A DNA stretch of 32,000 bases from Acaryochloris thomasi RCC1774 (GCF_003231495.1 NZ_PQWO01000034.1:5144-37143), one strand, 5' to 3'; positions 1-27,625 are shown, counted from the first letter of the stretch. A program made the numbers and translations. Notes: generated by a model not told the origin, from the sequence alone.

Positions 1-524
1 AGTTCTCTCACAAGACTCTCAACATCCATGTCAACGTCTCTAACCAGCAATTCCACCAACCTAATTTTATTGAACAAGTTCAGCAAACTTTACGAGAAAC
101 AAACTTAAGAAACAACAGCCTGAAGCTGGAAATTACTGAAAGTGTCATCATGAAAGATGCTATACGACTGGCTGATAAATTTGCTCAACTCCAGACTTTA
201 GGTGTCCGACTCGGGTTAGATGATTTTGGCACTGGCTATTCTTCATTGAGTTACCTGAGCCAGTTGCCCTTAGATACTTTGAAGGTTGATCGCTCATTTG
301 TAGCTCAGCTTGATCAAAGCAGCGGTCAGGAAATCACTCAGGCGATAGTTACGTTGGCCCATAATTTGCACATGGAGGTCATCGCTGAAGGAATCGAGAC
401 AGAATCGCAAGCTCAATTTCTACGGGCGATTGATTGTAGATATGGTCAAGGGTATTTGTTCTCTAAGCCAGTTGCTCCTGATGCGATGCCAGCTTTGTTG
501 TCTCAGGACACGCTTCTCAGCTAG
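1..524 (+). CDS. EAL-domain c-di-GMP phosphodiesterase, C-terminal part (5' end outside window)
   Basis: Frame 3 is open from base 3 (...NSLKLEITESVIM...) into listed ORF 150..524. EAL-family motifs are present: LEITES, DDFGTGYSSLSYL, KVDRSF, EGIETESQ, QGYLFSKP. Confidence 0.9.
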   Translation, partial: FSHKTLNIHVNVSNQQFHQPNFIEQVQQTLRETNLRNNSLKLEITESVIMKDAIRLADKFAQLQTLGVRLGLDDFGTGYSSLSYLSQLPLDTLKVDRSFVAQLDQSSGQEITQAIVTLAHNLHMEVIAEGIETESQAQFLRAIDCRYGQGYLFSKPVAPDAMPALLSQDTLLS

Positions 525-6358: not shown

Positions 6359-7839
6359 CTAAGCTCTTTGGAATCGCTTGAAGCCCAGCATTTCTAGCCA
6401 GTGTAGATGTTTCTCACCTGTCATCATTTCCCCTGGGCTTTTTCCCCGTCTTTGCTCAGAGTCACTACTCATGAATCTCCGGTGATTGATGAAGAATTGG
6501 AGAAGGCCCAGATAGGACGTTCCAAGATGCTTGCGCAGGCTGAAATAGTTCCGCAGTCTAGAATTGAGATTCTCCACTAAAGAACTGGCTCTAGGCGTCT
6601 GTTTCATTGCATTCTGGATCGCTTGATGGAGATGGAGCTGAAAGAACTTCCAGCTCAGCTTCTCGTGTAGATCACCCCAACTCCTCCAGCATGCTTCCGA
6701 GGTGGGCTGTTTGCGGAAAAATCGGACCATCTGCCGGAGGAGAAATAGAGGTGTATCAAATTGCTGAGCAATGTTAGCAAGCTTGTCATCTAACACCTTT
6801 GCAAAGGCCAACAGATCATCGCGTTGATTGTTCAAGGTTTGCGCAAGACTCGAATCTGCTTGCCTCCCAGATGTTCGCGCTGCTGAAGTTCAGCCACGAT
6901 GAAATCGTACAGTTCTATACGCTCAGCATAGGAGGGGCCAGCCAGTTGCAAAACATCGTGGTTGAGCCACTCAATAAGAGTCTTGACGTCTCTGGCCAGT
7001 TGCACGGCTTGTGTCTCCTGGGTTCTCGCTTTTCCCAACGGCACTGAGAGGTGGTTCCATTATCCCTGTTGTTTCGCCTCTGCCATCTTCGCCTCTAGCT
7101 CTTGCCGTCGAGTCTTTGCCCCCATTGCTTTGCGTGTCAAACTATTGGCCAGGGTATGGCACTGACGCTGGATGTGGAACACATCACCATGACAAAGCTT
7201 GTCTCCAAAGGCTTCCTTTTGACCAGCCTGCAAGCCAGTGCCGGCACCAGCAATCGTGTACTCTGGGTCGAGTCCTTGCTCTGCAGCATTGAGCAGGTGA
7301 TAGCCCCAAGTGTCTGCATCCCGATGGTCGGCTGCTTCGAGGAGGTAGCAATAGGTTGAGACAGCATCAATACCAACGAGCACTGGCTTTGAGCCATGAA
7401 AAATCTCATCGTGTAATCCCACACCAACGTTAGATAGGTCTTGGGATTGATTGATTATTGCCGCTGACTCAGAGGCAGTTTCAAGCCGGTTGTGGATCGT
7501 GCCAACACTGATGTGAAAGTCGAATAGATCGCGAAACAATTCAACGACACCGCGAAAGGAGTTGTGGCAGATCATTACCAAGGCAAGAATAAGTTGGAAT
7601 ATCCAAGCTTTGGTAACCGAAAGATGGAAAAGAACGTCATCATTATTGTCATCGTGCTTGAAATAAGCCTCTGTCAGAGCATCATTTGCCTTGTTGCTTT
7701 GCTGGTAGAGAAACTTGCGACTGACTTGGTGTTGTTTGGCAATGCTGGTGACGAGTTCTCTCTTTCTCAGAACCTGAAGGGCTAGCTCCTGGCGCTCAGT
7801 TGGGGAAAGAGTGGCGGCGACACAGGAAGATGAACTCAT
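6359..7839 (-). pseudogene. IS transposase gene broken into three ORFs (family not assignable by eye)
   Basis: ORFs 7839-7060 and 7044-6832 are in the same frame, separated by an in-frame TAA (7060-7062). ORF 6835-6359 is in another frame. The N-terminal HTH-like segment, HGDVFHIQRQ and the C-terminal SLVENLNSRLRNYF...LLQFFINHRRF are transposase-like. Confidence 0.7.
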
Positions 7840-8140: not shown

Positions 8141-9211
8141 CTAGACTGAGTGAGGCAAGCTGAGCTGCTGCAGAATAGATGATGCGATCTGTTCGACTGG
8201 CAGAACTGTTTGAGCTGCCCCTAGCTCAATCGCGACCTTAGGCATTCCAAAAACAATGCTAGTGGTCTCATCTTGAGCAATTGTTGAGCCTCCAGATTGT
8301 GCGATTTTCTGTAAACCCACGGCTCCATCTTGTCCCATGCCGGTAAGCAAAACACCGAGGACGCCTGCTCCATAGTGTTGAGCTACGGCTTGAAACATCA
8401 CCGTGATCGAGGGGCAATGACGATCCACCGCAGGTGCTGCAGAGTAATGGCAGCGACCTTGGTCATCCAGTGTCAGGTGATAGTGATCCGGTGCAAAATA
8501 AACCGTCCCTGGTACTGGAACTTCTCCAGCCTCTGCAACTTTGACATGAAGAGGACACATTGAGGCTTGCCAACTAATTAGCCCCGGTAAAAATCCCGCA
8601 GAGATGTGTTGAGCACAAAGAATCGGTAGGGGGAAATCTGCAGGGAGGCGACTCAGGATTTGATGAATGGCCTGCGGTCCACCTGTTGAAGCCCCTATTG
8701 CTAAAATCTGTGGTGCGTCAGCGCAGAGTCTGGGGCTGGGCCGGTGAGTAACACTGGAGCGAAGGATATGAGTTGTCGAGTGCTGACGTAGAGACTTTGT
8801 AAACACCTTGACTCCAGCTAGTACCTTGATTCTGTCAATCAGCGCCTGCTGATCGGCCGCTTTCCAGCGTCCTGTTAAGGGCTGAGGAAAAACATCCACG
8901 GCACCTGCCTTCAGAACCTGAGCAATGGTTTCAGTTTCGGTGGGCTGAACCGTGGGACTAACGACCAAAATCGGTAGCGGGCAAAGCGCTAGGAGCTGGC
9001 GGATTAGCTCGAAGCCATCCATATGTGGCATTTGCAGATTAGTACAAACGACATCTGGCTGCAATTGGGGAATGTGCTCTAGTGCTTCAGTTCCATTATT
9101 CGCGGTACCAATGACCTGAATCACGGGTGCCGCACTCAGCGCACCCGTGAGTCTTTGCTGTGCAATCGCACAGCTATCCACAATGAAAACGGTAATGATC
9201 GAGGAACTCAT
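8141..9211 (-). CDS. cheB: CheB protein-glutamate methylesterase with degenerate receiver domain
   Basis: The C-terminal esterase has GASTGGPQA (Ser), AQHISAGF (His) and LTGMGQDGA (Asp). The N-terminal receiver fold carries S13, N58 and Q110 in place of the conserved Asp, acceptor Asp and Lys. Confidence 0.9.
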   Translation of the reverse strand: MSSSIITVFIVDSCAIAQQRLTGALSAAPVIQVIGTANNGTEALEHIPQLQPDVVCTNLQMPHMDGFELIRQLLALCPLPILVVSPTVQPTETETIAQVLKAGAVDVFPQPLTGRWKAADQQALIDRIKVLAGVKVFTKSLRQHSTTHILRSSVTHRPSPRLCADAPQILAIGASTGGPQAIHQILSRLPADFPLPILCAQHISAGFLPGLISWQASMCPLHVKVAEAGEVPVPGTVYFAPDHYHLTLDDQGRCHYSAAPAVDRHCPSITVMFQAVAQHYGAGVLGVLLTGMGQDGAVGLQKIAQSGGSTIAQDETTSIVFGMPKVAIELGAAQTVLPVEQIASSILQQLSLPHSV

Positions 9212-9314
9212 TTTCTGGACTCAAGAGCAGCGAAAAACAATAACAGGAGTCAGATCCTAGGTCTAACCCCTGCTAATCGAAAGATTGAGAACCACCTGTC
9301 GGCAAAACGAGCAG

Positions 9315-9731
9315 CTACTTTGCTTTATCCGCTAAGACTTTGATCTTCGTGATCAGAGCAGTCTTCAGCTTTTCGTAGTCCGTCGCACTTCCTGAGGTAG
9401 GCTTCGGGAAGAAGTCTAGGGCACCCGCAGACATTAAATTGAAGATGTTATCGACATCATTACCGGGATGAACGGCATTGCTAACCACTAAAATCGGGCG
9501 AGGGAAGTCTGACATGACTTTTTTGGTGAACGCTAAACCATCCATTTTCGGCATTTGCAAATCGGTGCAGATTACATCTGGCTGAGTCTGAGCGATGACG
9601 GCCAACCCCTGTTCACCATCTTGAGCAGTGCCAACAACCTCCACCTCGGGGGCGGAATCAAGCAGGCGCTTCATAATTTCAAGGGCAACAGCAGAGTCTT
9701 CAATGAGGACAACTTTGATGGGATCAGCCAT
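9315..9731 (-). CDS. cheY: stand-alone CheY-like receiver, paralogous to the CheB N-terminal domain
   Basis: 138 aa. E11-D12, D57 (CTDLQMPKMDG), S84 and K110 (FFPKP) are all intact. The ATG lies 2 nt after the cheA stop, with AGGAG upstream. Confidence 0.9.
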   Translation of the reverse strand: MADPIKVVLIEDSAVALEIMKRLLDSAPEVEVVGTAQDGEQGLAVIAQTQPDVICTDLQMPKMDGLAFTKKVMSDFPRPILVVSNAVHPGNDVDNIFNLMSAGALDFFPKPTSGSATDYEKLKTALITKIKVLADKAK

Positions 9732-9733
9732 GA

Positions 9734-12142
9734 CTAAATTAATCTCCTGAGGGTATCTAAAAGTAACGTTTGGTCAAAATCGCCTTTGCTGATGTAGGCA
9801 CTAGCCCCAGCATCAGCTCCACGCCGCCGATCTTCGTCTTTCGCCAGTGTGGAAACAAGGACAATCGGTAGCTCTTCATATTCGTCTTGCTGACGAATGC
9901 GGCTGGTCAGCTCTAATCCAGTCAGATTAGGCATCTCAATATCAGAAACCACGGCATCAAAGGTGTCGAGGCTCAATTTCTCGAAACCATCAAGACCGTC
10001 CACTGCAGCCGTCACATCGTACCCGGCGCCCTTAAGAATACGAGAGACTTGCGTACGAATTGGTATCGAGTCTTCCACCAGCAGAACCTTGGGCTTGGTG
10101 ATCTCCATTCGTGCTGCAGGCAGGATGGCGTTGCCTCCCACCGAGCGAATCAAGTCCTGAGGGTTGAGGACCATGCAAATCTCACCATTGCCGAGAATCG
10201 TGGCTCCAGTGATATTGCGAATTCGCTTCAGGAGCTTGCTTTGCGGCTTAAGAACAATATCTTGTTGCTCTAGTAGGTCATCCACCAATAGGCCTAACTG
10301 TTCTGAGCCGACCTTAAGAACGACGCAGGGCAGATGAGTTGCACTGCTAGAACTACCCGCTGAGGCAGTCGGTAGTTCTAGCAGATCAGAAAGCCAAGCA
10401 AGGGAAAGAGGAGAGTCCTGAAAGGTTATGGTTGGGCTACCATCAATGGTAAAGATATCCTGACGTTGAATGCGGATCATGGTGTTCACAGATTCCACTG
10501 GAATTGCGTAGGAGGTCTGAGCCACCGTCACAATTAGAGCATAGGTGGTATTCAAATTCGTCCCAAGAATGAACCGGAATGTACAGCCCTGCTCCGGCGT
10601 AGAAGTTACCTGAATCGAGCCTTTGAGGCGCTCCACATTGGCGCGCACAACATCTAACCCAACGCCTCGACCGGACAGCTCTGTTACAGTGGTACGCGTA
10701 GAAAATCCCGGCTCAAAAATCAAGGACTGAATCTGCTCCATTGACATCCGCTCTAGCTCAGCTTCACTGTGAAGGCCTCGACGAATGGCGGTGCGCTTAA
10801 TTTTCCCCAGGTCTAGGCCGCGTCCATCATCTACTAACTCAATGCAGATGCTGCTGCCCATTTGATACCCTCGCAATCTCAAGGTCGCTTGGGAGGGTTT
10901 GTCGGCAGCGAGACGATCGCCTAGGGATTCAATGCCGTGATCAATGGCGTTGCGAATCAGGTGGGTAAGCGGAGCCTTCATTTCTTCTAAAATTCGCTTG
11001 TCCGCTAGCGTGTCGCCGCCCTCGATCACAAAATCAATCTCTTTTCCCTGCTCCTTAGATAAATCCCGCACGAGGCGTGGAAAGAGGTTAAAGACACTAG
11101 AAAGAGGCAGCATCCGCAGCTTCAGGATGCCGGATTCCAGTTCGTTTGAAACTGTCTCTAGCCGGGCGGTATCGGCAGAAGCTGTGCTGCGGAGCTGTTG
11201 TAGTAAATCACCAAGTAGATCAAGATGGTGCTCATGTTGCTGATGTGATTTCTGCAACGGTGCCAATAGATCGGGATCAACTTGTTGCGCCAAAGTGTCG
11301 AGAGCTGTGCGCTGCTCTGTATTTCCTCGAGACCAAACTTCCCAAAGGTTAAGAATCTCAGTCATGTCATCCATCCGGCGAGCAATTCGCAGTTTGGTGA
11401 CTGCTAGCTCACTGGCCTGGGTCATGAGTTGATCAAGTTTGGGGGCCGCGACCCGCACCGTATCGATCTGGTAGGATTCTTCTGGCTTTTCAGGTTCTGT
11501 AGGCAGTGAGGGCGGCTCTGGTGATTCAGCTTTAGAGACTGGCTGAGTATGGCTATTAGAGTTTTTAGGAGCAATACCACTCAATTCGGCCGCAAGCTCT
11601 GGATCAAGCATCGAGAGATCTAGTCCGGCGGCGACGAAGGGTTGCTCGGATGCCGATTCGTCAGGTTCTGAGAGTATCAGATCCTGCTCTTCATCAAAAT
11701 CGAAGATGTCAGCACCCGTATTCTCAGAAATTGCTGGCTCGTCAACGAATGACTCAGGGACATCATCGACCCCCATCAATTGGGCTAAGACGTGAAGAGT
11801 GTTGACCCCCGAAGGCTCGTTTGTAACAGCTTCGTGGGCGACTTTTTTGAGGGCATCAAGACCTTTATAAATGCGATCAAAAAACTCCGCCGAAACTGTT
11901 TGCTCACCTTTCTCCACTGCAATCAGCAGTTCTTCAATCTGGTGCATCAGCGTCTCGGCATCTTGCACCCCTAACATCCGCGAGTCTCCCTTGAGAGAAT
12001 GGGCCTCGCGCAGAAGCTCCTGCAGTTGGCTCGCGTCGTCAGGGTGCTTTTCGAGGTGCAGCACACCGTTTTCTAGTTTGTCTAAATGCTCCCGACTGGC
12101 ATCTCGGTAAAGAGCGCGCAGTTCTTCATCTTCGATGAACAT
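9734..12142 (-). CDS. cheA: hybrid CheA histidine kinase (Hpt - acidic linker - dimerisation/HATPase - CheW-like - receiver)
   Basis: Hpt motif EAHSLKGDS; N box HLIRNAIDHG; G1 DDGRGLD; G2 SGRGVGLDVV. CheW-like segment present. The C-terminal REC has ED, D (VVSDIEMP), S/T and K (YISKGDF). Confidence 0.92.
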   Translation of the reverse strand: MFIEDEELRALYRDASREHLDKLENGVLHLEKHPDDASQLQELLREAHSLKGDSRMLGVQDAETLMHQIEELLIAVEKGEQTVSAEFFDRIYKGLDALKKVAHEAVTNEPSGVNTLHVLAQLMGVDDVPESFVDEPAISENTGADIFDFDEEQDLILSEPDESASEQPFVAAGLDLSMLDPELAAELSGIAPKNSNSHTQPVSKAESPEPPSLPTEPEKPEESYQIDTVRVAAPKLDQLMTQASELAVTKLRIARRMDDMTEILNLWEVWSRGNTEQRTALDTLAQQVDPDLLAPLQKSHQQHEHHLDLLGDLLQQLRSTASADTARLETVSNELESGILKLRMLPLSSVFNLFPRLVRDLSKEQGKEIDFVIEGGDTLADKRILEEMKAPLTHLIRNAIDHGIESLGDRLAADKPSQATLRLRGYQMGSSICIELVDDGRGLDLGKIKRTAIRRGLHSEAELERMSMEQIQSLIFEPGFSTRTTVTELSGRGVGLDVVRANVERLKGSIQVTSTPEQGCTFRFILGTNLNTTYALIVTVAQTSYAIPVESVNTMIRIQRQDIFTIDGSPTITFQDSPLSLAWLSDLLELPTASAGSSSSATHLPCVVLKVGSEQLGLLVDDLLEQQDIVLKPQSKLLKRIRNITGATILGNGEICMVLNPQDLIRSVGGNAILPAARMEITKPKVLLVEDSIPIRTQVSRILKGAGYDVTAAVDGLDGFEKLSLDTFDAVVSDIEMPNLTGLELTSRIRQQDEYEELPIVLVSTLAKDEDRRRGADAGASAYISKGDFDQTLLLDTLRRLI

Positions 12143-12225
12143 GGCTTTAATCTTGTGCTGAGGGCAATGGAGTGAAGAGGATGTTTAAGCAGTTCTGTGG
12201 TGAGTGGTTAACATTAGAGATCATT

Positions 12226-12248
12226 CCCCCTTGAGAAGGAAAGGGGGG
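12226..12248 (-). other. GC-rich hairpin in the MCP-cheA intergenic spacer
   Basis: CCCCCTT (12226-12232) pairs with AAGGGGG (12241-12247), with an 8-nt loop. No U-tract follows on the sense strand, so it is not a canonical terminator. Confidence 0.35.
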
Positions 12249-12302
12249 ATCTCCTCCACCAACTTATTCAAGCAAACTCTAAACAAAGGCGGTCAAAAAA
12301 GG

Positions 12303-13661
12303 TTAGACAGTGACCTGTAGTTTCTTCGCCACCTCCGTCAACTCCTCGGTGGAGGACTTCACTTGACTGACTACAGTTGCAGTTTCTTTGGCACCTAAGT
12401 TGATGGCATTCATCGCTGAGACTGCTTGCTGTACACCTACAGCTTGCTGCTTCGAGGTGAGGGCAATTTGTTGGCTGGCGATTGACACATCGTTGACTGC
12501 AGCGGCAATCTCTTGGAATAACGACAGAGTATCTTCGGTCAACTTAATACCGGCATCTGCGGTTTTATTGCCTTCATCAGTTACCATAACCGTGCTGTTA
12601 ATGGAGCCTTGAATTGTGCTCACCAAGGTACCAATTTTGTCTGCAGAACCCCGGCTTTGGTCCGCCAGTTTCCGAATTTCACCGGCAACCACTGCAAAAC
12701 CCTTACCCTGCTCTCCTGCTCGGGCCGCTTCCACAGCTGCGTTTAGGGCCAGCATATTGGTCTGATCTGCGACATCTCCCACCAGCTTCGAGACATTAGA
12801 AATCTGGTCGGTTTGTTCACTCAACTGCATGATCTTTTCAGCAATATCTCCCACCTTGGCTCGTAGGTTGGCAATTCCGTCTAGCGTTTCTTGCACCGTT
12901 TGGCGGCCACTTTCCGATAAATCGAGAGCCTGCTGGGCGCTTGCGGCAGAGGCACCTGCCTGCTGCGCAGCCTGCATCGAAGAAGCACCCAGTTCTTCAA
13001 CTGTCGTTGTCGTTTCATTCACAGAAGCCGTCTGATCAGATACAATTCGGCCTTGCTCTTCCACGGTGGCAGCGATTTGAGAAGAGCTACCCGCTACACT
13101 ACTGGCCGCTGTCTGCAGTGTGCTAGAAGCCCGCTGAATCGTCCAGAAAATAAACGCCAAAACTCCAAGATTCAATAACAAGATGGCGGCCTGAGCAATT
13201 TGAGTTTCACGGACCTGGGCAGCAGAGAATTCTTCTGCTGCAAATACGGCATCGTTGGTCAGCTCAAAGTAGGTTTCACTGTCAGCAATCAGCTTCGGTA
13301 AGATACTGGGATCTTGACGATAAGCGACAACCGTTTGCTTCAATTTTTGCCAAGCATCATTGACGACTGTAATTTTTTCTAGATATTGCGCATCTGTTGC
13401 TTTGGGTAGTTTTAGCTCTGAATTACCATTAATCAAACCCTCGACTAAGGTATCCAGTTTGGCAACGAGCTTGTCGTTCGGTTTACCATTTATTTCTAGC
13501 TTTACCAGTCGTTGGGTCGCACCCCGGACAATCCCGGACTTGTTGACGACACTACCATCCTGTACACCTGTCTGTACCTGAGCTAGCAAATAACCCGTTG
13601 TGCCGACTGCAAAGGTTGCTAGCCCGACGATGGTCCATTGTAGTTGATTGGTAATTTTCAT
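12303..13661 (-). CDS. methyl-accepting chemotaxis protein, PilJ-like periplasmic sensor, no HAMP
   Basis: Two TM segments (res 10-30 and 158-175). The periplasmic segment has [13 protein letters not shown]. The signalling hairpin tip is [32 protein letters not shown]. Only about 10 residues lie between TM2 and the coiled coil. Confidence 0.92.
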
Positions 13662-13722
13662 TGCGTTGCTCCTGTTTGGAATTGGGGTTTGAGGTTACGA
13701 AAAAGGTTTGAAGGATCAGATG

Positions 13723-14835
13723 CTAAGCAGCTTGGTCAACCGTTAGTTGAGCGTTGGAAAAAAGAGCGGACAAATTAAGAATGCTCAAAGTCTTGTCGTT
13801 GTAACGGGCCGTGCCCTGAAAATGCCTCTGGTGGCTTGCAGAGCTAGCTAGCGGGATAGCTGAAATGTCAGTTGGAGAGAGAGACATCACATCAAAAACG
13901 GCATCCACGGGAATACCAGCAATGATGTCGTCAACCTCTACAACAATGGCCTTTGCTGACGGGGCTGCGGCAGGAGCCTGCGTTAACACCGTGCGGAGAT
14001 CCACCAGCGTCATCACTTCACCACGCAAATTCATGTTGCCTACAATGTGTGGAGGACAGCAGGGGATGGGAGTGACCTGCTGCACATTGATAAACTCACG
14101 CACCCTGTCTAACTCCAGCGCGAAGTAATTCTCACCTAAACCAACCACAGCCAAGGAAACCTGATCATTGCTTTCACCCTCTTCCAGGGGTGGCCGCAGA
14201 GCATCCGCGCGTTGCCGAAAGATTGCTCGCTCGGCTGGCGTTACGTTTTGACAGTACAGCTCGTAAAAGTTGCTACCGCTCCGTTCTGAAGTAACACTGG
14301 TCTGCCACTGAGCCTCTGGAGCGGTCTCGGTATTTGACTCAGAAAGTTCAGCCTCCCAGATCATCATGGCAACATCATCGGCCTGCCGAATCAAGGTCTC
14401 AGGGTTGAGTAGAACCACCAGATCAGCCTCTACCTTGGCAACCCCGGCGACAAACGCAGTATTTATCTGCTGCAGTCTGCCGTAATCTGGAGCAGCCTCA
14501 TGATCTGTAGCTGCGATCGTCTGAACATCCAATACCTGATGAACCACGAGGCCCACCTGTATTCCCTGCCACTCAATCACAATGATGCTGTCGCTGAGCT
14601 GGCAGGGCAGCATGGACTGCCCAAGACGCAAGTCTAAGTGCATCACTGGGAGCAGCTTCCCGCGCCAGTTGAGGCTACCGATGATGTCCTTTGGAGCATC
14701 AGCTATGGGCTGGAGTTCAGGCAGATGGAAGATTTCTCGTACCCGAGAAGCTTCAACGCCATAGAGTGAATCACTGTGGCGAAATATTAAGTAGGATTGA
14801 TTGTCTGTATCCATGGGTCTAAGCCTTTCCAGCAA
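13723..14835 (-). CDS. cheW: tandem CheW-domain coupling protein
   Basis: 370 aa with two CheW-like units (YLIFRHSDSLYGVEASRVREI... and YFALELDRVREFINVQQVTPIP...NLRGEVMTLVDLR) joined by an acidic linker. Confidence 0.88.
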   Translation of the reverse strand: MLERLRPMDTDNQSYLIFRHSDSLYGVEASRVREIFHLPELQPIADAPKDIIGSLNWRGKLLPVMHLDLRLGQSMLPCQLSDSIIVIEWQGIQVGLVVHQVLDVQTIAATDHEAAPDYGRLQQINTAFVAGVAKVEADLVVLLNPETLIRQADDVAMMIWEAELSESNTETAPEAQWQTSVTSERSGSNFYELYCQNVTPAERAIFRQRADALRPPLEEGESNDQVSLAVVGLGENYFALELDRVREFINVQQVTPIPCCPPHIVGNMNLRGEVMTLVDLRTVLTQAPAAAPSAKAIVVEVDDIIAGIPVDAVFDVMSLSPTDISAIPLASSASHQRHFQGTARYNDKTLSILNLSALFSNAQLTVDQAA

Positions 14836-14887
14836 AAGTTATCGGCGTGGGCCGTAAAATGAATGACAGTAAACGAGATCGCTAATT

Positions 14888-16021
14888 TCAGACCTTCACT
14901 GCGGTTGATACGTTTTTATCGAGCACCTCAAGCAATTTTTTCTGAGAGATGGGCTTGGTGAGATAATGGGTAGCACCCGCCATCTGTCCCTTAAGTTTGT
15001 CGAACATGCCATCCTTGGCCGTCAGCATTACGATCGGCAAGCTCTGGAACTTACCAAGGCTGCGAATGGTGCGGCACAGTTCTAGGCCGTCAATGTCGGG
15101 CATGGTGACATCCAACAAGATCAGCGACACATCTCTGCGATTGAGGATGTTGAGGGCATCCACTGCGTTGTCGGCCAGTAGCACCTGATAGCGATCGCCA
15201 ATAGCTCGCTTAATCAGGGTTTGCACCACTGGACTGTCATCAACGCTGAGGATAGTGGACTGCTGTGATGCTGCAGACTGAGATGCCTTTTGAGCTATCA
15301 CCTCTGGGCTGTCACAGGTTAACCAGCCCTTTTTACCCCATTGGTAATAGACATGGGCTAATCTCAGTGGATCTTTCTCCATTGCAACCGCAATATCCAC
15401 CAGCGAGTTTTGGCCGTCCACCCACTTTCGTAAATGTTCCGCAACAGAGGCCTCAGCTTGATTGATGTTTAAAGGCTGAGGGACGGACTCAAGGGACGGA
15501 ATGATAGGGGCCAACGCAGACCACTGCTGCTGACGCTGGGTGTAGACTGACAGCAGCGAGTCCCAGCAAAATCCTTGCTGGGACTCGCTGCAGTGGAGGT
15601 CAAACGATCTCTCAACGTTTTGGTTAATCGTTCCTTGGTAGGGAATGAGCTGCTCAAGAACCGCTAAGATTCTTGTTTGCATGAATGCTTGAATATCTTC
15701 CCACTTAAATAATTCAAGGCGAACCAGTAGTTCAAAGTATTCTTGAATTGAGCTGTGATTCTTTGACTTTTTATTCGCCAACTTAATCGCAGAATCCATT
15801 ACCTTAAGCTTGAGCTGATGACCCAATAAAATCGCAAGGTCTTGAGCCGTGATCAGATCTACCCCAGCATAAGTCATCCATCCCTGATGGAAAGCGATTA
15901 CCCGTTTTCTGAGCTGCGTCTGTTGTGGAACTTTAGCCTGGACTGCAATGACACCGCTAAATTTATGACTTCTAAAGCTATTAATAAAATACGGCAGTTG
16001 TTTTGACTTAAATTGTTGCAT
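14888..16021 (-). CDS. PatA/PixG-type response regulator (N-terminal PATAN/DUF4388-like domain + receiver)
   Basis: The C-terminal REC has DD (LSVDDSP), D (LILLDVTMPDIDG), T (VMLTAK) and K (YLTKP). The roughly 240-aa N-terminal domain (FSGVIAVQA...FHQGWMTYAG) is of the type seen in cyanobacterial PatA-family regulators. Confidence 0.85.
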   Translation of the reverse strand: MQQFKSKQLPYFINSFRSHKFSGVIAVQAKVPQQTQLRKRVIAFHQGWMTYAGVDLITAQDLAILLGHQLKLKVMDSAIKLANKKSKNHSSIQEYFELLVRLELFKWEDIQAFMQTRILAVLEQLIPYQGTINQNVERSFDLHCSESQQGFCWDSLLSVYTQRQQQWSALAPIIPSLESVPQPLNINQAEASVAEHLRKWVDGQNSLVDIAVAMEKDPLRLAHVYYQWGKKGWLTCDSPEVIAQKASQSAASQQSTILSVDDSPVVQTLIKRAIGDRYQVLLADNAVDALNILNRRDVSLILLDVTMPDIDGLELCRTIRSLGKFQSLPIVMLTAKDGMFDKLKGQMAGATHYLTKPISQKKLLEVLDKNVSTAVKV

Positions 16022-16439
16022 TTTCTCTACCTCAACTTAAATAATAAGTTTGTCTGATTCTTCACAAAGACAGTCAAAACCTTGAAAAAGGTTTTTTGCT
16101 TATTATTTAATAATATTAACTATCAAGCCTCTAATTCTTTGATTTAAACACCAAAAAGCTAGATATTGTTGCTGATAACTATCTTTCCCAAAATGAAACT
16201 TGATAATCACAGTCTCATAGTTTCCCCTAATGAAGGTAAGTTTGCCATTTCCAATTTAATGAAGCGCTACTAGATGAGGCAGGATTGCATGTTCCTCTTG
16301 GTCTCTATAATTAATGTGCCCATGTAAGAGAACAAGTCTTACTCCAAGACAATCGTAGATTTTTACTTATCGTCTATTTATACGATCGGGCTGCATTGCC
16401 GAGTACCTTGTTGTCATCAATACCTTTCTATTAATTTTC

Positions 16440-16511
16440 TCAAGACCTCCCTATTGTGTTCTTCAATGCATTTCCATGGATTTCTTCAATACTTCTATAG
16501 AGAGGTCTTGA
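16440..16511. repeat. 10-bp perfect inverted repeat with internal TTCTTCAAT direct repeats, just downstream of cheR
   Basis: TCAAGACCTC (16440-16449) and GAGGTCTTGA (16502-16511). TTCTTCAAT occurs twice between the two arms. Confidence 0.5.
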
Positions 16512-16540
16512 AGGACTGCGATACATTGACAGGCTGTTTT

Positions 16541-17953
16541 TCAACTTGCTTGCAGCAGGCATTGACGGAGCTGCATTAATAACTCACCTGCGGTGACCTG
16601 ACCACGATATTCAATCCAGGTTTTAGGCGGTAGCTTTTCTAGCAGTTCCTGAGCAGTGTGGTACATCTTTGTAGCTCTATTTCTTTGGGTATCTTGAGCA
16701 TAGATAGCTCCCAACTCAAAGTAGGCTGGAATATGGGTTGGCTGAAGATAGAGAATTTTTTTGAGGATTGTCTTGGCTTGTTTGTAATCACCCCTCTTCT
16801 GAACGATCTGGGCCATCAAATACAAAGAAGATAGTGATTCCCCGTCAACAAGCAGTGCAGCCAGACAACAATTCATAGCCTGTTCTAGGTTTCCCCGCTG
16901 CCAATGAGATTGAGCAAGTAGATGTTGGGCAGCCCGATCCGTCGTTGAGTTTGAAGTTACCTCATACTGAATCGCCAGGGGTGCTTTGGGCTGAAGTGTT
17001 GAGCTAGGAGAAGTCTCAACTGACCGAGAGAGAGGCTTGGACCGCGGTTCGGCTGTCGCTACAGATTGGGGGCGATAGGCCATTGAGCCTGAAAAACTCA
17101 GTACTTGAAATTGCTGCAGATTCTGGTTGTAAAGCTCAGCATGGCCTGTAATCAGGTAGCCCTTAGGATTTAATGCTGAATGAAGCTTCCTGAGGATTGT
17201 AGCGATCGCATCTGCTTCAAAATAGATGAACATATTGCGGCAGATGATCAAATGCATGGAGCTGAGCAGGTTGTTAGGCACCGGATCGGCCAGCAAATTC
17301 CCTCTGCGAAACGTTACCCGCTCCCGAATGTGGTCATGAATCTGCCAGTTCGCTGACACAGGGCGGAAGTAAAGAGACTTGAGTTGCGGCTCGGTTTGGC
17401 GGAAGGACCAGTTTCGATATAAACCCTGTCGAGCCTTATTAAGCGCCGCCGGATTCAGGTCTGTTCCCAGGATAGAAATCTGCCATCGAGGTAAATCGGG
17501 GATGAGCTCTTGAAGCAGAATCGCTAGCGAATAAGGTTCTTCTCCTGAAGAGCAGCCTGCGCTCCAGAGATTGAGCGTGGGCTGGGGAATTGAACCTGCA
17601 GTATAGGCCTGTCGCTGCTGAGCAATGAGGTCGGGAAGGATGTGCTCTCGCAAAACTTGAAATTGGCCATGATCGCGGAAAAAGTAGCTCTCGCCAATGG
17701 TGACTAACTCAAGAAAATAGTCCCATTCGCGTTTGGCTTCGGATTCGGACTCCGCAAAGGATTTTAATCCGGAAGTCAGATGTTGATAATAAGCCTGGGG
17801 ACTTTCCACGTTGATGAATTGAATCCGATGCATAATATTGTCAGACAGGGTAACCCAGTCCTGAGATCGCAGCCGGATACCAGTTTGGCTCTGGATTAGG
17901 TCTAGAAATTTCTGCCGCAGTGCTGCCTCAATCATAAGATGTCCGATTTTCAC
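16541..17953 (-). CDS. cheR: CheR methyltransferase with C-terminal TPR repeats
   Basis: SAM-binding motif LWSAGCSSGEEPYSLAILL; CheR all-alpha N-domain; C-terminal TPR-like helices (GNLEQAMNCCLAAL..., GDYKQAKTILKKILYLQP...). GTG at 17953, ATG at 17935. Confidence 0.9.
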   Translation of the reverse strand: MKIGHLMIEAALRQKFLDLIQSQTGIRLRSQDWVTLSDNIMHRIQFINVESPQAYYQHLTSGLKSFAESESEAKREWDYFLELVTIGESYFFRDHGQFQVLREHILPDLIAQQRQAYTAGSIPQPTLNLWSAGCSSGEEPYSLAILLQELIPDLPRWQISILGTDLNPAALNKARQGLYRNWSFRQTEPQLKSLYFRPVSANWQIHDHIRERVTFRRGNLLADPVPNNLLSSMHLIICRNMFIYFEADAIATILRKLHSALNPKGYLITGHAELYNQNLQQFQVLSFSGSMAYRPQSVATAEPRSKPLSRSVETSPSSTLQPKAPLAIQYEVTSNSTTDRAAQHLLAQSHWQRGNLEQAMNCCLAALLVDGESLSSLYLMAQIVQKRGDYKQAKTILKKILYLQPTHIPAYFELGAIYAQDTQRNRATKMYHTAQELLEKLPPKTWIEYRGQVTAGELLMQLRQCLLQAS

Positions 17954-21661: not shown

Positions 21662-22717
21662 CTAATCATCAAACAAAAAGCTCAAACCATCTTCTCCTTT
21701 TCTGTCTGCACGGGCTGTTTCTACGCGCTCCCAGAGCCGTTCATCATCGCGGTAGATTGACATAGCTTGCTCTGCCAGACGAGCCTCTACCTCACTGCCA
21801 CGGGAGATAGTCTCCACAACGTAGTCAAAAGCCTCTGGCAGCCGCAGGAGAGCAATGGCTTCGAACGCAATCCTCTGTCGTTCCTCATCGAGACTGTTCT
21901 CTGCGAATTCTCGCAGTGCATTGAAAGCTAGCAATCGCCGTGAAGATCCCAAGGTAATTGCTGCAACAGAGACTACATCAATATCGGAAGACTCTAGAAA
22001 CTGAGCCACAAACCGAACCGTTTCATCTTCCTCCTCAGAATTATTGGGGGGACCAGATAAGGCAAACAAGACCGAGAAAATTTCTTCTAGAACCCTGACA
22101 TTGAGTTCTCCACTGAGTGCCCTCAATCGGAGCAAAGCGATGGGCGTTGCTCCTGAAAAACAGCTCAGCGCCTGCGCTGCCCCTGCTCTGGCTTCGGTCT
22201 CTGGGTCTGCCAATAGATCAGCGATGTAGAGTAGGGCATCAGCATATCCAGTTTCAGCCAGTGCCACCGCGCATTCAGCTCTGAGTTGAGCGGCCCGATC
22301 TTCTTTGCCACCCCAGACTGCCTCAAACTGTTTGTACCGTATGCCCCGTATGTAGGTGGTCGGTTCATAGGCTTTCAAACGTCGCAAAGCCTTAATGATA
22401 TTCGCCTTTCCTATACAGCCCGGATCAACATTAGCTCCATTGTGGCTTAGTCGTTCGTATGCTTTCAGCATGTCAGGGATGCCATCTTTCCATTCCAGTT
22501 TGGCCGCAATCTTCGCCGCTTTGCCCACAGCAACGCCATGCTTGCTCATGAATCCCCGGCGCAAGGCAAACCACGTCTCTTCATTGGGGGGAGCATCAGC
22601 CAATTGATCTAGTTGCGAAAGGACTGTCTCGATATCGTTTTTTCGCTTTGCCATTGTTTCATCCCGAGCTTGAATGCCCTTGGTTGAACTTATATATTCA
22701 GTCCCCCTTAGTATCAC
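21662..22717 (-). CDS. alpha-helical repeat (HEAT/PBS-lyase-like) protein coupled to umuC, unknown function
   Basis: The GTG at 22717 overlaps the umuC TGA (GTGA); an alternative ATG lies at 22654. Repeat-like units include ADLLADPETEARAGAAQALSCFSG and FLESSDIDVVSVAAITLGSSR. The C-terminus is acidic. Confidence 0.7.
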   Translation of the reverse strand: MILRGTEYISSTKGIQARDETMAKRKNDIETVLSQLDQLADAPPNEETWFALRRGFMSKHGVAVGKAAKIAAKLEWKDGIPDMLKAYERLSHNGANVDPGCIGKANIIKALRRLKAYEPTTYIRGIRYKQFEAVWGGKEDRAAQLRAECAVALAETGYADALLYIADLLADPETEARAGAAQALSCFSGATPIALLRLRALSGELNVRVLEEIFSVLFALSGPPNNSEEEDETVRFVAQFLESSDIDVVSVAAITLGSSRRLLAFNALREFAENSLDEERQRIAFEAIALLRLPEAFDYVVETISRGSEVEARLAEQAMSIYRDDERLWERVETARADRKGEDGLSFLFDD

Positions 22718-24003
22718 CTCACCACCGGCAAATCATCCCACCGTGTCGTATACGCCGGAGTACACTGCTGCCGTCTCATCGCCCACTGCTGAGTGCAACC
22801 CTCACTAGCAAAGAAGACAGCCCTGCGACCATACAGACGATTGAGCTGATCGACAGTATTCATAAGCGCGATCGCCTTCTCGCTGTCCCTTTCTTGAAAG
22901 AGATGCCCCTGCATTGCATTGTCCTGCGAGATATTCAGCAACATCACCCCTGCCTTCGCATACCGTGGCCCTTTTCTGTAGATACGCCTGAGTACTTGCC
23001 CTGCCGCATTGATCAGCTTGCGGGTGTCAGCAGTCGGCATCGCAAACTTGGCTAAGGCCGACTGCGAGTAATACTCTTCATCAGGATTATGCCGTCCAGT
23101 GCGGATGGAAACCTGAATTGCACCACAGACTGAGTTCTGCGATCGCAACTTCTCCGCTGCCTTGGTTGAGTGCATGGCGACAGACTGCAGCAGTGGCTCT
23201 AGCTCTACGACTCGCTCACCGAAGGACCGCGAGGAAATGATCTGCTTCTTTGGCTGTATCTCTTCAACCCCGATGCAGGGCACCCCCCGTAGCTCCATGA
23301 TGATTCGCTGCATCACCACGCTGTATTGTCGCCGCATCGAATCAGGATCTGCATCTCTCAGGTTTTTAGCGGTATGGATGCCAGAGGCTCGGAGCTTCTT
23401 TGATAAGCGCCGCCCAATGCCCCAGATGTCCTGTACCTCGATAGTCTCCAGAACATGATCTAGTGATTCTGCGCTGCCCAGGTTAAACACTCGCCCTGGA
23501 ATCTTCCGCTTTTTACAAACGCGGTTGGCGATTTTGGCTAAGACGCGAGTAGGCCCAATGCCGACAGAGACAGGGATGCCCGTATGCCGTAGGGTTGTAG
23601 CTGCAATCTCGCGGGCATAGGCATCGAGCGAGAGATGACAGAAGCCCGAGAGATCGAGCCAAGCTTCATCGATCGAATAGACTTCTATCTCAGGCGTAAA
23701 TTGCCCCAGCGTATTCATCACCCTGGCTGACATATTTCCGTAGAGCGTGTAATTGCTGGAGACTATCACTGCTTTCATTTCATCAAGCTGATCGCGGATC
23801 TGGAAGTAGGGGGCACCCATCGGAATGCCTGCCTCCTTCAGTTCGTTGGAGCGGGCCACAATGCAGCCGTCGTTATTACTCAAGATCCCGAGGGGCCGTT
23901 TTGCCCATTTAGGCTTGAAAATTCGCTCACAACTCGCGTAGAAGTTGTTGCAATCTACTAAAGCTATCTGTTGCGAAGTTTTAGACAGTTTTTCTAAAGA
24001 CAC
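22714..24003 (-). CDS. umuC: Y-family translesion DNA polymerase UmuC (Pol V catalytic subunit)
   Basis: IALVDCNNFYASCERIF, SIDEAWLDL, and the little-finger region. The start overlaps the umuD 3' end by 23 nt. Confidence 0.92.
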   Translation of the reverse strand: MSLEKLSKTSQQIALVDCNNFYASCERIFKPKWAKRPLGILSNNDGCIVARSNELKEAGIPMGAPYFQIRDQLDEMKAVIVSSNYTLYGNMSARVMNTLGQFTPEIEVYSIDEAWLDLSGFCHLSLDAYAREIAATTLRHTGIPVSVGIGPTRVLAKIANRVCKKRKIPGRVFNLGSAESLDHVLETIEVQDIWGIGRRLSKKLRASGIHTAKNLRDADPDSMRRQYSVVMQRIIMELRGVPCIGVEEIQPKKQIISSRSFGERVVELEPLLQSVAMHSTKAAEKLRSQNSVCGAIQVSIRTGRHNPDEEYYSQSALAKFAMPTADTRKLINAAGQVLRRIYRKGPRYAKAGVMLLNISQDNAMQGHLFQERDSEKAIALMNTVDQLNRLYGRRAVFFASEGCTQQWAMRRQQCTPAYTTRWDDLPVVR

Positions 24004-24409
24004 CTGTGACCACCCCCCAGATCACTAACTCAGACTCCCGAGTGATCCGAATCGGCTTGTACTCCTTGTTCTCTGGCCGCAGCTCTAGCACCCTGCCTTG
24101 CTTGTAGAGTCGCTTAACGGTCAGCTCACCCTCAATGGCCGCAATAACGATAGAGCCGTGTATCGCTTCAACTGCCCTATCAACCACCAGATAATCGCGG
24201 TCAAAGATGCCCGCTTCCACCATTGAATCGCCCGACACCCGCATGAAGAAGGTTGCTGAAGGATGTGCGATCGCAAGGTCGTTGAGGTCGAGATTACACT
24301 CAATGTAGCTATCAGCCGGAGAGGGGAAGCCAGCAGGGACAAGGGAGCTGAGCAGTGGGCGTTCTAGGAGAGATAGACCTTTTAGCTCGTGAATAGATTG
24401 AACTTGCAT
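23981..24409 (-). CDS. umuD: UmuD-like S24 self-cleaving peptidase
   Basis: The cleavage region VPAGFPSPADSY (Ala-Gly), the Ser in VSGDSM and the Lys in LTVKRL are all present. Confidence 0.9.
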   Translation of the reverse strand: MQVQSIHELKGLSLLERPLLSSLVPAGFPSPADSYIECNLDLNDLAIAHPSATFFMRVSGDSMVEAGIFDRDYLVVDRAVEAIHGSIVIAAIEGELTVKRLYKQGRVLELRPENKEYKPIRITRESELVIWGVVTGVFRKTV

Positions 24410-25121: not shown

Positions 25122-25814
25122 TCAATAATTGATTGCTGGGTAGAGTCTTTGTAGCTTGACTCTGGCCTCCTGGGTTGTGAAGCGCCAGTTAATCCACGTC
25201 CCCTTCTGATTGCGATGGCTATTCCAAGCACTCACCTGCTTTTGTAGGTTTTGAAAATCAGCAATGCGTTGGTCTAAGCATTGGCGAGCAAGAATACTCA
25301 ATTCAATCTCAGCCATATTCAGCCAGCTTCCATGTTTGGGTGTGTAGACAAACTCAAGCCGAGACAAAATCCGTCGAGCTTCTTGTGGAGCAAACGCTTT
25401 GTAGAGTGATGAAGGCGAATGAATATTGAGATTATCTTGAACAAGCGTGATTTGACGGGCCTCAGGATAAAACACATCCACTAGCTCCTTGAGCAGATGT
25501 GCATAATCGAGTGCGGTTCTGCGTTGGGTGACCTTTACATACCGTGCTCCCACTATCGGCTCACATAGCATGAAGAGATTGGCCGTTCCATTACGCTCAT
25601 ACTCATAATCGACACGCTCTGGTTGACCGCGTCGAGCGGCAATGGGGATGGTGATTTCTTTAACCAGTTGCTTGGTGGCTTCATCGAGACAAATTAACGG
25701 GTTTCTCAAGTCATAGGGACGCTCATAGACGGCTAAGATCTCCTCCATACGCCAGACAAACTCTGCATTCTGATGCGGTGGAATTACCCAACAAGTCTTT
25801 CGCCAAGGTTGCAA
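25122..25814 (-). CDS. IS630 transposase OrfB (DDE catalytic domain), expressed by -1 frameshift from OrfA
   Basis: OrfB is in the -1 frame relative to OrfA. Slipping on CTA AAA AAA A gives ...TLKKNALQPWRKTCWVIPP, the usual IS630 junction. DDE candidates: LICLDEAT, VQDNLNIH, NMAEIE. Confidence 0.85.
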   Translation of the reverse strand: MQPWRKTCWVIPPHQNAEFVWRMEEILAVYERPYDLRNPLICLDEATKQLVKEITIPIAARRGQPERVDYEYERNGTANLFMLCEPIVGARYVKVTQRRTALDYAHLLKELVDVFYPEARQITLVQDNLNIHSPSSLYKAFAPQEARRILSRLEFVYTPKHGSWLNMAEIELSILARQCLDQRIADFQNLQKQVSAWNSHRNQKGTWINWRFTTQEARVKLQRLYPAINY

Positions 25815-26254
25815 TGCATTTTTTTTAGCGTTCCTCGGACGGTTTCATAACTGAGGTGGTCGATGTAGCCTAATTCGACCATTTGGTCGGCGAGTAATCG
25901 CAGTGTCCAGCGAGCATGGCCGACCGGCGGTTCGCTACAGCGTAAGGCAATCAGATGAGCTTCTTGCTCTCCCTGCATTTTTCGCTTGCGACCTGAACCA
26001 GAGCGTTGATTGATGGCAGCATCAAGGCCTTCTTCAACGAATCGCTGACGCACCCTCTCAATGGTTCGAACACTTACGCCTATCGCGTCATGAATCTCTC
26101 TATCACAGCAACCGCCACTGGCTTGGTTAACATCGGCTTTGAGGAGAATACGGGCATGATTAATCTGCCTAGCCCCCCGTCTACCAGTTGTAATGAAGGT
26201 GTGCAGGTGCTGTTGCTCTGCATCACTCAGGGCGACAATATAGCGTTTGGCCAT
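25784..26254 (-). CDS. IS630 transposase OrfA (HTH domains)
   Basis: N-terminal helix-turn-helix/winged-helix region. The ORF ends shortly after an A8 tract (T8 on the plus strand, 25819-25826). Confidence 0.85.
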   Translation of the reverse strand: MAKRYIVALSDAEQQHLHTFITTGRRGARQINHARILLKADVNQASGGCCDREIHDAIGVSVRTIERVRQRFVEEGLDAAINQRSGSGRKRKMQGEQEAHLIALRCSEPPVGHARWTLRLLADQMVELGYIDHLSYETVRGTLKKMHCNLGERLVG

Positions 26255-26431: not shown

Positions 26432-27571
26432 CTATGTCTTTGGCATTTGATAGAGAGGAATCCAGCCCCTTTGATACCAGTTGTACTGTTCGGCCACTGG
26501 CTGCATAGCCTCAATATGAGGCTTTGAGATCCCTCGCTTGAGTAAATCTGTTCGAGGCATGATATCTGCCGGACGGCTGCTTTTGCTGTAGTAGCGAGGT
26601 GGGTAGCGATCCATAATCTCCTTAGGCTGTTCCACGGCGTAAAGCAGCCGAAACACCTTGCCAGATTTAGAGAGATAGTAAGCATCAGGATTCAGTTCCT
26701 CACGTATCCAAGGCATGTAATCCTTGAAGAAGCTGAAGGGCTTCAGATCGTCTGGTATATTTTTCTGGAGTCGATAGCTGGGCATGTCAGGGTTTTTCGA
26801 GATGTTTTGCCACGCATCGTATGGAAATCCCGTAAATACCTTTGTATACAGATTAAGTCGCTCCCATTCAGATTGCCTGCAGCTTCCACCTGTCCACTCC
26901 GAGTATTTTAGCCAGCGCATCCAAAAGTCGGACATGCGTTCTTGATAGCGGCGCTGGTTCCGTTGCGTTCTCCACTCCATCTCCCGTAGCTCTGCCTTTG
27001 CGATCGCGCTTGCCTCTCTATCGGCGCGAATAGCGGCGACTCTGGCTTTTTCAGCATCTTCGGTCAAGTATTGCCAGACGGCTCGACAGGCTAGAGCGTC
27101 GGTCAGAGCGCGGTGAGAATCCCCAGACCATTGGTGATAAACGCGCTGCGCTGCAACTGCCAGAGACTGCCAGCGGTAGTTGCCCCAGTAATCCGACCAG
27201 TCCCCATAATCTTCAGCAAACGCTTCTATGCAGCAGCTTATGGACGCAGCTTTCGCTAGCTCAGCTCCTAAAAAACCGGACTCGAAATCAGCATTATAGA
27301 TGACCACGTTTTGCCCGAATAGCAGATTAATAATCTGAGGTCGCAGCTCGTCTAATGTAGGAGCAGTCGTTATGTCATCTGGACTGATACCGTGAATCGC
27401 TTGGGCCTCGGGCCAGCTTTCGTTGTGCGTTGGCCTCACTAGAGTATTGAGCAGGGGCTGGTCGCTGTCATCTGCGATCGCAATTTCTAAAATCTCATCA
27501 TCGGGTGGGTAGAGGCCGGTGGTTTCGATGTCGAGATAAAGGTAAGTTATCGGATGTCCTGTAGTGTCCAT
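26432..27571 (-). CDS. DEDDh 3'-5' exonuclease (DnaQ/epsilon-like) fused to an unknown C-terminal domain of about 190 aa
   Basis: Exo I YLDIETTGL, Exo II VIYNADFESGFL, Exo III HRALTDALA. The C-terminal half is Trp/Tyr/Arg-rich with no recognised family. Confidence 0.85.
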   Translation of the reverse strand: MDTTGHPITYLYLDIETTGLYPPDDEILEIAIADDSDQPLLNTLVRPTHNESWPEAQAIHGISPDDITTAPTLDELRPQIINLLFGQNVVIYNADFESGFLGAELAKAASISCCIEAFAEDYGDWSDYWGNYRWQSLAVAAQRVYHQWSGDSHRALTDALACRAVWQYLTEDAEKARVAAIRADREASAIAKAELREMEWRTQRNQRRYQERMSDFWMRWLKYSEWTGGSCRQSEWERLNLYTKVFTGFPYDAWQNISKNPDMPSYRLQKNIPDDLKPFSFFKDYMPWIREELNPDAYYLSKSGKVFRLLYAVEQPKEIMDRYPPRYYSKSSRPADIMPRTDLLKRGISKPHIEAMQPVAEQYNWYQRGWIPLYQMPKT

Positions 27572-27625
27572 GATTTCCTATTCCTCATACATTCGACGGT
27601 GTACATGAGGCCGCACAACACCTAG

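Follow-up and report, generated by a model that had tools for sequence, protein, structure and literature searches.

A CheB methylesterase with a predicted pseudo-receiver and a CheB-type stand-alone receiver in a chemosensory gene cluster of Acaryochloris thomasi

Regulation of the canonical chemotaxis methylesterase CheB, as represented by the Salmonella/E. coli (PDB 1A2O) and P. atrosepticum (6YMZ) proteins, is defined by phosphorylation-dependent activation. Here we describe a CheB encoded in a 32,000-nucleotide stretch of the Acaryochloris thomasi RCC1774 genome (GCF_003231495.1, NZ_PQWO01000034.1:5144-37143; the whole stretch is called the window). It shares with these proteins the two-domain architecture, esterase fold, Ser/His/Asp triad and che-cluster setting, but carries S13, N58 and Q110 at receiver active-site positions, so that phosphorylation-dependent activation should be unable to operate in it. 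Its gene and that of a stand-alone receiver occupy the interval 8141-9731, at the distal end of a cyanobacterial chemosensory cluster of seven genes, where we confirmed two minus-strand open reading frames (ORFs).

Aspartate-less CheB is already known as a type. In the census of Maule et al. 2015 (PMC4395418, Table S2), 44 of 1672 proteins with the REC-CheB_methylest architecture were aspartate-less, from taxa including Cyanobacteria. These proteins are discussed neither in the main text of that study (PMC4395418) nor in a 2025 review of pseudo-receivers (PMC12632262), and our literature search on pseudo-receiver, aspartate-less or phosphorylation-independent CheB returned no functional description, that supplementary table being the sole relevant item. 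The census only counted such CheBs; new here are a clade, evidence of selection and a genomic partner, and the more useful by-products are a family of stand-alone receivers and a series of related clusters in which CheB is canonical, dead in its receiver, or absent. As in other aspartate-less or pseudo-receivers, the N-terminal domain of the window CheB is recognized as a receiver by profile, has no acceptor Asp, is conserved in its lineage and is fused to a normal output domain. A methylesterase without phospho-feedback, as we would expect the window CheB to be, has an analogue in the E. coli CheB D56E and CheBc proteins, in which catalysis and precise adaptation are kept, noise suppression is lost and cell-to-cell variability is increased (PMC5809149). 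Those are laboratory mutants that impair chemotactic spreading, whereas the window CheB is a naturally fixed, selected state.

Among cyanobacterial systems, Synechocystis Tax1-3 and Nostoc Hmp resemble the window cluster in having a large regulator with a C-terminal receiver, CheW, an MCP (methyl-accepting chemotaxis protein), a hybrid CheA-REC and two response regulators. Tax-type systems have been described as lacking CheR and CheB. In the Tax and Hmp systems, moreover, the small regulator is of CheY type and its gene precedes cheW, whereas in the window it is of CheB type and its gene follows cheA, and both CheR-TPR and CheB are present. We found no description in the searched literature of this CheR/CheB-containing cyanobacterial cluster type or of its CheB-derived stand-alone receiver. 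Extra single-domain response regulators serve as phosphate sinks in some chemosensory pathways, an example being Sinorhizobium CheY1. Receivers fused to CheA have been given the same role (PMC10542144). The window receiver resembles phosphate-sink regulators in its small size, its complete active site, the position of its gene beside cheA and the presence of other receivers in the cluster; it differs in that its sequence places it as a descendant of a CheB receiver, not of CheY.

The CheB pseudo-receiver and its conservation

The full-length window CheB aligned with 6YMZ (E=1e-58) and 1A2O (E=3.5e-56), scored 312.5 bits against the NCBIfam CheB model PRK00742 (cut-off 293), and matched PF01339 over profile positions 2-174 of 174. 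In the alignments with these two proteins, D11 is matched by S13, the acceptor D56 by N58 and the conserved Lys by Q110, and the active site as a whole reads D12, S13, N58, S85 and Q110 where canonical receivers have D/E, D, D, S and K. An earlier note, made from the sequence alone, had listed these five residues together with an intact triad, and had named an Asp at the acceptor position as an observation that would overturn it; both the two alignments and a 121-sequence alignment, in which we surveyed CheB residues, bear the list out, with N58 found opposite D56. All three catalytic residues are kept, namely Ser in ASTGG, His in QH and Asp in GMGxDG; in the alignment S175 corresponds to S164 of E. 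coli CheB, H202 to H190 and D295 to D286. This triad is unchanged in 121 of the 121 aligned CheBs, also across the clade described below. Judged from its sequence, the N-terminal domain is a pseudo-receiver, without the acceptor Asp and also without one metal ligand and the Lys. Because these three residues are gone, control of the esterase by phosphorylation of CheB's own receiver is very unlikely, in agreement with the earlier suggestion of phosphorylation-independent control.

An AlphaFold 2 (AF2) model retains a complete (beta-alpha)5 fold in the pseudo-receiver, with a predicted local distance difference test score (pLDDT) of ~90 or more, and is also confident in the esterase domain. The modeled pseudo-receiver superposes on the T. 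maritima CheB receiver 3T8Y with a template modeling (TM) score of 0.86, and the catalytic domain on T. maritima 3SFT with a TM score of 0.93 and a root-mean-square deviation (rmsd) of 1.5 Å. Linker residues 139-161 have pLDDT values <50.

As N58 is a single transition away from Asp, a canonical CheB in which GAT had been misread as AAT through faulty sequencing or assembly could in principle account for it. Direct reading of the codons gave AGC for S13, AAT for N58 (ATT on the plus strand, 9038-9040, as noted earlier) and CAG for Q110. Three active-site positions are altered, however, one of which (S13) would take two nucleotide changes. Independent assemblies, from Thermosynechococcaceae and Acaryochloris bins and from metagenome contigs, supply the five CheB clusters nearest to the window's (71-82% identical), and all five have [D/E]-S and N at the corresponding positions, with Q at position 110 in four and P in the fifth. 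Four relatives for which DNA is available also vary synonymously at the three sites (AAT/AAC at N58, AGC/AGT at S13 and CAG/CAA at Q110). An error is effectively refuted by the three altered sites and five independent assemblies, and we give it a negligible probability.

With the window, these relatives form a small dead-receiver clade of six protein clusters, the trees being identity-based rather than maximum-likelihood. None of the five has a canonical receiver, whose presence in orthologues would, by the earlier note, have counted against it. The next 114 CheB matches (<=55% identity) all have D and K, and nearly all E-D. A scan of the genome collection with the CheB alignment yielded, among the matches listed, only relatives of <=51% identity, which served as canonical control loci.

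We compared constraint on the two CheB domains. Inside the clade, receivers average 73% identity and esterase domains 79%; the ratio of the two is 0.92, and in canonical CheB pairs of comparable divergence it is 0.99. In a comparison of the window with L001 (we refer to related loci by L numbers), the proportion of differing nonsynonymous sites (pN) was 0.16 for the pseudo-receiver and 0.14 for the esterase domain; it was 0.41 for the linker, which is only 33% identical, and 0.06 for the stand-alone receiver. The corresponding synonymous proportions (pS) were 0.67-0.85, near or at saturation; pN and pS are given instead of the ratio of the two substitution rates (dN/dS) because synonymous sites are saturated in the receiver (pS 0.79). 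By these measures the dead receiver is about as constrained as the esterase domain. Nine of the 12 clade-specific fixed substitutions fall in the receiver, including the three active-site ones, and clade receivers are 48% identical to those of canonical CheBs, compared with 66% among canonical CheBs. Together with the low pN, this pattern shows change concentrated in a burst along the stem branch, with purifying selection thereafter, and fits a function that was changed but maintained.

A methylation module in the course of being lost would offer another account, in which the dead receiver is the first step toward a cheB pseudogene of little or no function. Outside the dead-receiver clade, most of the stand-alone receivers that best match the window's (79-85% identical) belong to clusters without a nearby CheB or CheR, as this account would have it, and the CheB of this clade is rather divergent over its whole length, its esterase domain being 55-62% identical to any canonical CheB. 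All six clade members are nevertheless full-length ORFs with an intact triad; pN stays at 0.14-0.16 with synonymous changes at or close to saturation; both the window and L001 still have CheR-TPR; and the same three substitutions are kept clade-wide, which is not random drift. Decay under way is in our estimate distinctly improbable, and the full-length ORFs, intact triad and low pN led us to reject a pseudogene. Taken together, these comparisons indicate that loss of the acceptor Asp is a conserved lineage trait, neither an error nor gene decay, and that the window CheB is a real methylesterase kept by selection, with catalysis predicted.

A CheB-derived family of stand-alone receivers

The window CheB and the stand-alone receiver are 42% identical over 130 residues (BLASTP, E=2e-32). 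The paralogy described in the earlier note is thus real, although the alignment is not gapless, containing 3 gap positions. The motifs quoted there are all present and the quoted numbers all correct, including the complete active-site quintet E11, D12, D57, S84 and K110 of the stand-alone receiver.

The name CheY given to this neighbor does not stand. It is, like a CheY, a single receiver domain with a complete quintet, but its sequence affiliation lies elsewhere. In NCBIfam, CheB models match it at 5e-34 (positions 1-129), followed by another family at 9e-15, and the best CheY model (CheY_Halo) reaches only 3.6e-9. Its four best PDB matches are CheB receivers, and it retains the start of the CheB linker helix (TKIKVLASK). 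These CheB-type matches, together with 65-68% identity to the receivers of some canonical CheBs, rule out a CheY.

Nor is the stand-alone receiver a recent duplicate that compensates for degeneration of its neighbor, since it is far less similar to the adjacent pseudo-receiver (42%) than to those canonical CheB receivers. We found orthologues in >120 stand-alone protein clusters, 69-89% identical to it and almost all 134-139 residues long. Mean column identity in this family is 80%, a conservation far above that of CheB. On these grounds the stand-alone receiver is a member of an old, highly conserved family of single-domain receivers derived from CheB, and it predates the degeneration of the window CheB.

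We surveyed the genomic contexts of this family by gene-context look-ups and a metagenome scan seeded with the stand-alone receiver family. The receiver always comes directly after CheA-REC in one cluster type, and the gene that follows it varies. In the close receiver family, 15 loci, among them those of Thermosynechococcus sp. AP024678 and a Pseudanabaenaceae genome, have a canonical CheB. Six have a dead-receiver CheB (the window, L001, L172, L174, L176 and L177), and nine have no CheB nearby, including Leptothoe kymatousa and Romeria aff. gracilis LEGE 07310, in which a neighboring CheR is missing as well. The tie proposed earlier between an N58/Q110 CheB and the extra receiver is not borne out, the receiver being present in the 15 canonical and nine CheB-less loci as well. 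At further loci CheB comes directly after CheA without a stand-alone receiver, and the receivers of those CheBs are the closest relatives of the family (65-68%).

We also looked for co-adaptation of the stand-alone receiver to a dead CheB and found it unsupported. Residues 84-136 show no context-specific change across canonical, dead-receiver and CheB-less contexts, and in the whole protein the sole difference is M20, specific to the dead-receiver loci. As the receiver is near-invariant whether CheB is canonical, dead or missing, its role looks independent of CheB.

Possible control of the methylesterase

The best explanation, which we consider probable though well short of certain, is a feedback-free CheB together with a stand-alone receiver that serves as a small phospho-acceptor independent of CheB. 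CheA would be unable to phosphorylate the dead-receiver CheB, and the esterase would run without phospho-feedback from CheA to CheB, its rate being either fixed by the pseudo-receiver or controlled by something other than phosphorylation. Methylation-based adaptation with CheR-TPR would persist, as in non-phosphorylatable E. coli CheB mutants; such a CheB should be viable because D56E and CheBc keep catalysis and precise adaptation (PMC5809149). The stand-alone receiver would take phosphate from CheA as the small diffusible acceptor of the cluster, whether as an output partner, a phosphate sink or both, with X-REC, the cluster's large regulator, as the likely output regulator. Adjacency of its gene to cheA supports the partnership with CheA, and a role as phosphate sink or small phospho-acceptor is plausible.

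Several points weigh against this explanation. At the CheB-less loci the search covered flanks of 6-10 kb, as opposed to whole genomes; no esterase was found in them, nor any CheR at loci whose upstream flank was read. Relative placement of the two CheB domains in the AF2 model is unreliable (predicted TM score 0.57; TM score ~0.6 and rmsd 7-9 Å to 1A2O and 6YMZ). Activity of the dead-receiver CheB could be predicted either as basal, like that of unphosphorylated CheB, or as de-repressed. Because it is strongly conserved, the pseudo-receiver must still do something, which could include binding a partner such as the stand-alone receiver. Finally, tandem receiver copies occur at none of 19 loci with a canonical CheB and at 8 of 23 with a dead-receiver CheB or none (Fisher p=0.005), hinting at a functional link between receiver pools. 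Because it reflects only about two independent duplication events, this association is no more than suggestive.

At L172:4412-5354, L174:1561-2512 and L176:6842-7864, three of the five informative dead-receiver loci, cheA is separated from the dead-receiver cheB by two intact 137-residue CheB-type receivers in tandem. Of these two types, the window and L001 have only the cheB-proximal one, the window copy being closest to that copy. A second receiver family, 50-60% identical to the window's, often forms a tandem pair after CheA whose copies are 75-89% identical (L139, L145, L151, L155, L157, L158, L160, L163, L164 and L169; for example, L155:5965-7032); no methylesterase came next in the five of these loci with >=1.5 kb of downstream sequence. 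Tandem copies could compensate for the lost phospho-accepting receiver or be tied to control of CheB in trans.

Such control would amount to a split response regulator. A stand-alone receiver phosphorylated by CheA would dock on the pseudo-receiver, for example through the alpha4-beta5-alpha5 face, and relieve inhibition of the esterase in trans, so that phospho-feedback would persist with a second polypeptide as its carrier. The genes of the two paralogous domains are adjacent, the pseudo-receiver is under purifying selection and so functional, and the presence of tandem intact receivers in three of five informative degenerate loci but none of the 19 canonical ones would also be in keeping with it. 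Against this, the stand-alone receiver is equally conserved where CheB is canonical or absent, it was there before the degeneration, its sole clade-specific residue is M20 and none lies on the alpha4-beta5-alpha5 face, and the tandem association again comes down to about two events. Action in trans on CheB, which the earlier note had also raised, is thus without support from the receiver sequences, and we regard a split regulator as unlikely. Equally doubtful is that the window CheB is a naturally split one, in which the stand-alone receiver (in tandem in several clade members) took over phospho-sensing after the fused site was lost; if so, the pseudo-receiver would be regulated by heterodimerizing with its phosphorylatable paralogue.

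Whether or not a feedback-free CheB is the right explanation, these loci form a natural series in which one conserved cluster has a phosphorylatable CheB, a phospho-dead but selected CheB, or no nearby CheB or CheR, with the CheB-derived stand-alone receiver kept in every state. Two of these states are represented by cultured or named organisms, the canonical one by Thermosynechococcus sp. and the CheB-less one by Romeria aff. gracilis LEGE 07310. The series makes testable what feedback contributes and what the retained pseudo-receiver does. It also comes with a corrected annotation, the small gene encoding a CheB-type receiver rather than CheY.

Cluster layout and other features of the window

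The cluster (8141-17953) has the gene order CheR-TPR, X-REC, CheW-CheW, MCP, CheA-REC, stand-alone receiver, CheB (Table 1), which is the same in L001 and L087; the CheB gene thus lies in one cluster with genes for CheR, MCP, CheW and CheA. In the window the cheA stop codon TAG (9734-9736) and the receiver ATG (9729-9731) are 2 nt apart, and the two genes overlap in L087, L090 and L178. This overlap suggests that CheA and the stand-alone receiver are translationally coupled. A 103-bp spacer separates the receiver gene from cheB.

Table 1. Coordinates of the chemosensory genes and CheB domains in the window
Feature	Coordinates	Strand	Evidence
cheB, protein-glutamate methylesterase, 356 aa, N-terminal pseudo-receiver	8141..9211	-	PF01339 2.9e-60; PF00072 1.3e-14
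Pseudo-receiver domain (predicted), CheB aa 1-135	8807..9211	-	D12, S13 (9173-9175), N58 (9038-9040), S85, Q110 (8882-8884)
Inter-domain linker, CheB aa 136-168, poorly conserved, predicted disordered	8708..8806	-	pLDDT, identity
Methylesterase catalytic domain, CheB aa 169-356	8141..8707	-	S175 (8687-8689), H202 (8606-8608), D295 (8327-8329)
Stand-alone CheB-type receiver, 138 aa, complete quintet E11, D12, D57, S84, K110	9315..9731	-	PF00072 1.5e-18
cheA hybrid kinase: Hpt, dimerization, HATPase, CheW-like, C-terminal receiver	9734..12142	-	Pfam
MCP, methyl-accepting chemotaxis protein	12303..13661	-	PF00015 8.8e-39
Double-domain CheW	13723..14835	-	PF01584, two stretches, 1.3e-54
X-REC, 377 aa: N-terminal domain ~240 aa + C-terminal receiver; candidate output regulator	14888..16021	-	PF00072 1e-25, residues 257-367
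CheR methyltransferase fused to TPR repeats	16541..17953	-	PF01739 1.9e-49 + TPR families

Besides that of CheB, the cluster encodes three receivers, in X-REC, CheA-REC and the intact stand-alone protein. X-REC is likely the output regulator; its N-terminal domain, which probably serves as the system's output module, also occurs upstream of CheW at 29 related loci. No Pfam or NCBIfam family was assigned to this N-terminal part. Its size, position and 'FSGVIAV...RVIAFHQGW' start (15301-16021, minus strand) recall PatA-type (PATAN) regulators, although a Pfam search with E up to 10 gave no PATAN match. The window system is non-flagellar and probably has a pilus-related or alternative function.

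Immediately downstream of cheB, at 6359-7839 (minus strand), are two ORFs of 158 and 259 residues without a Pfam match, a position at which L001 and L172 have PhoH, a KH-domain protein and ribosomal protein S16. The segment may have arisen by insertion or rearrangement, and a split transposase is one possibility; a search for inverted repeats around these transposase-like ORFs found none. On the metagenome contig L131 (3-3111), a long CheA frame of 872 residues ends in a receiver (the C-terminal ~165 residues), and an esterase-only ORF overlaps the 3' end of that frame; either cheB is frameshifted here or the protein is split differently.

Elsewhere in the window, an HTH_32 ORF and an overlapping DDE_3 ORF (25122-26254, minus strand) look like a two-frame or frameshifted IS630-type transposase. 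A UmuD-like (Peptidase_S24) and UmuC-like (IMS, Y-family polymerase) pair occupies 22714-24409 (minus strand); with an RNase_T-type exonuclease ORF and an MmcB-like ORF upstream of it (26432-28855), it makes up a small DNA-damage gene cluster. At 150-524 (plus strand), a 124-residue ORF has an EAL-domain match confined to the domain's C-terminal 100 positions, and is either a truncated gene for a cyclic di-GMP phosphodiesterase or part of a longer gene whose start was missed by the ORF call.

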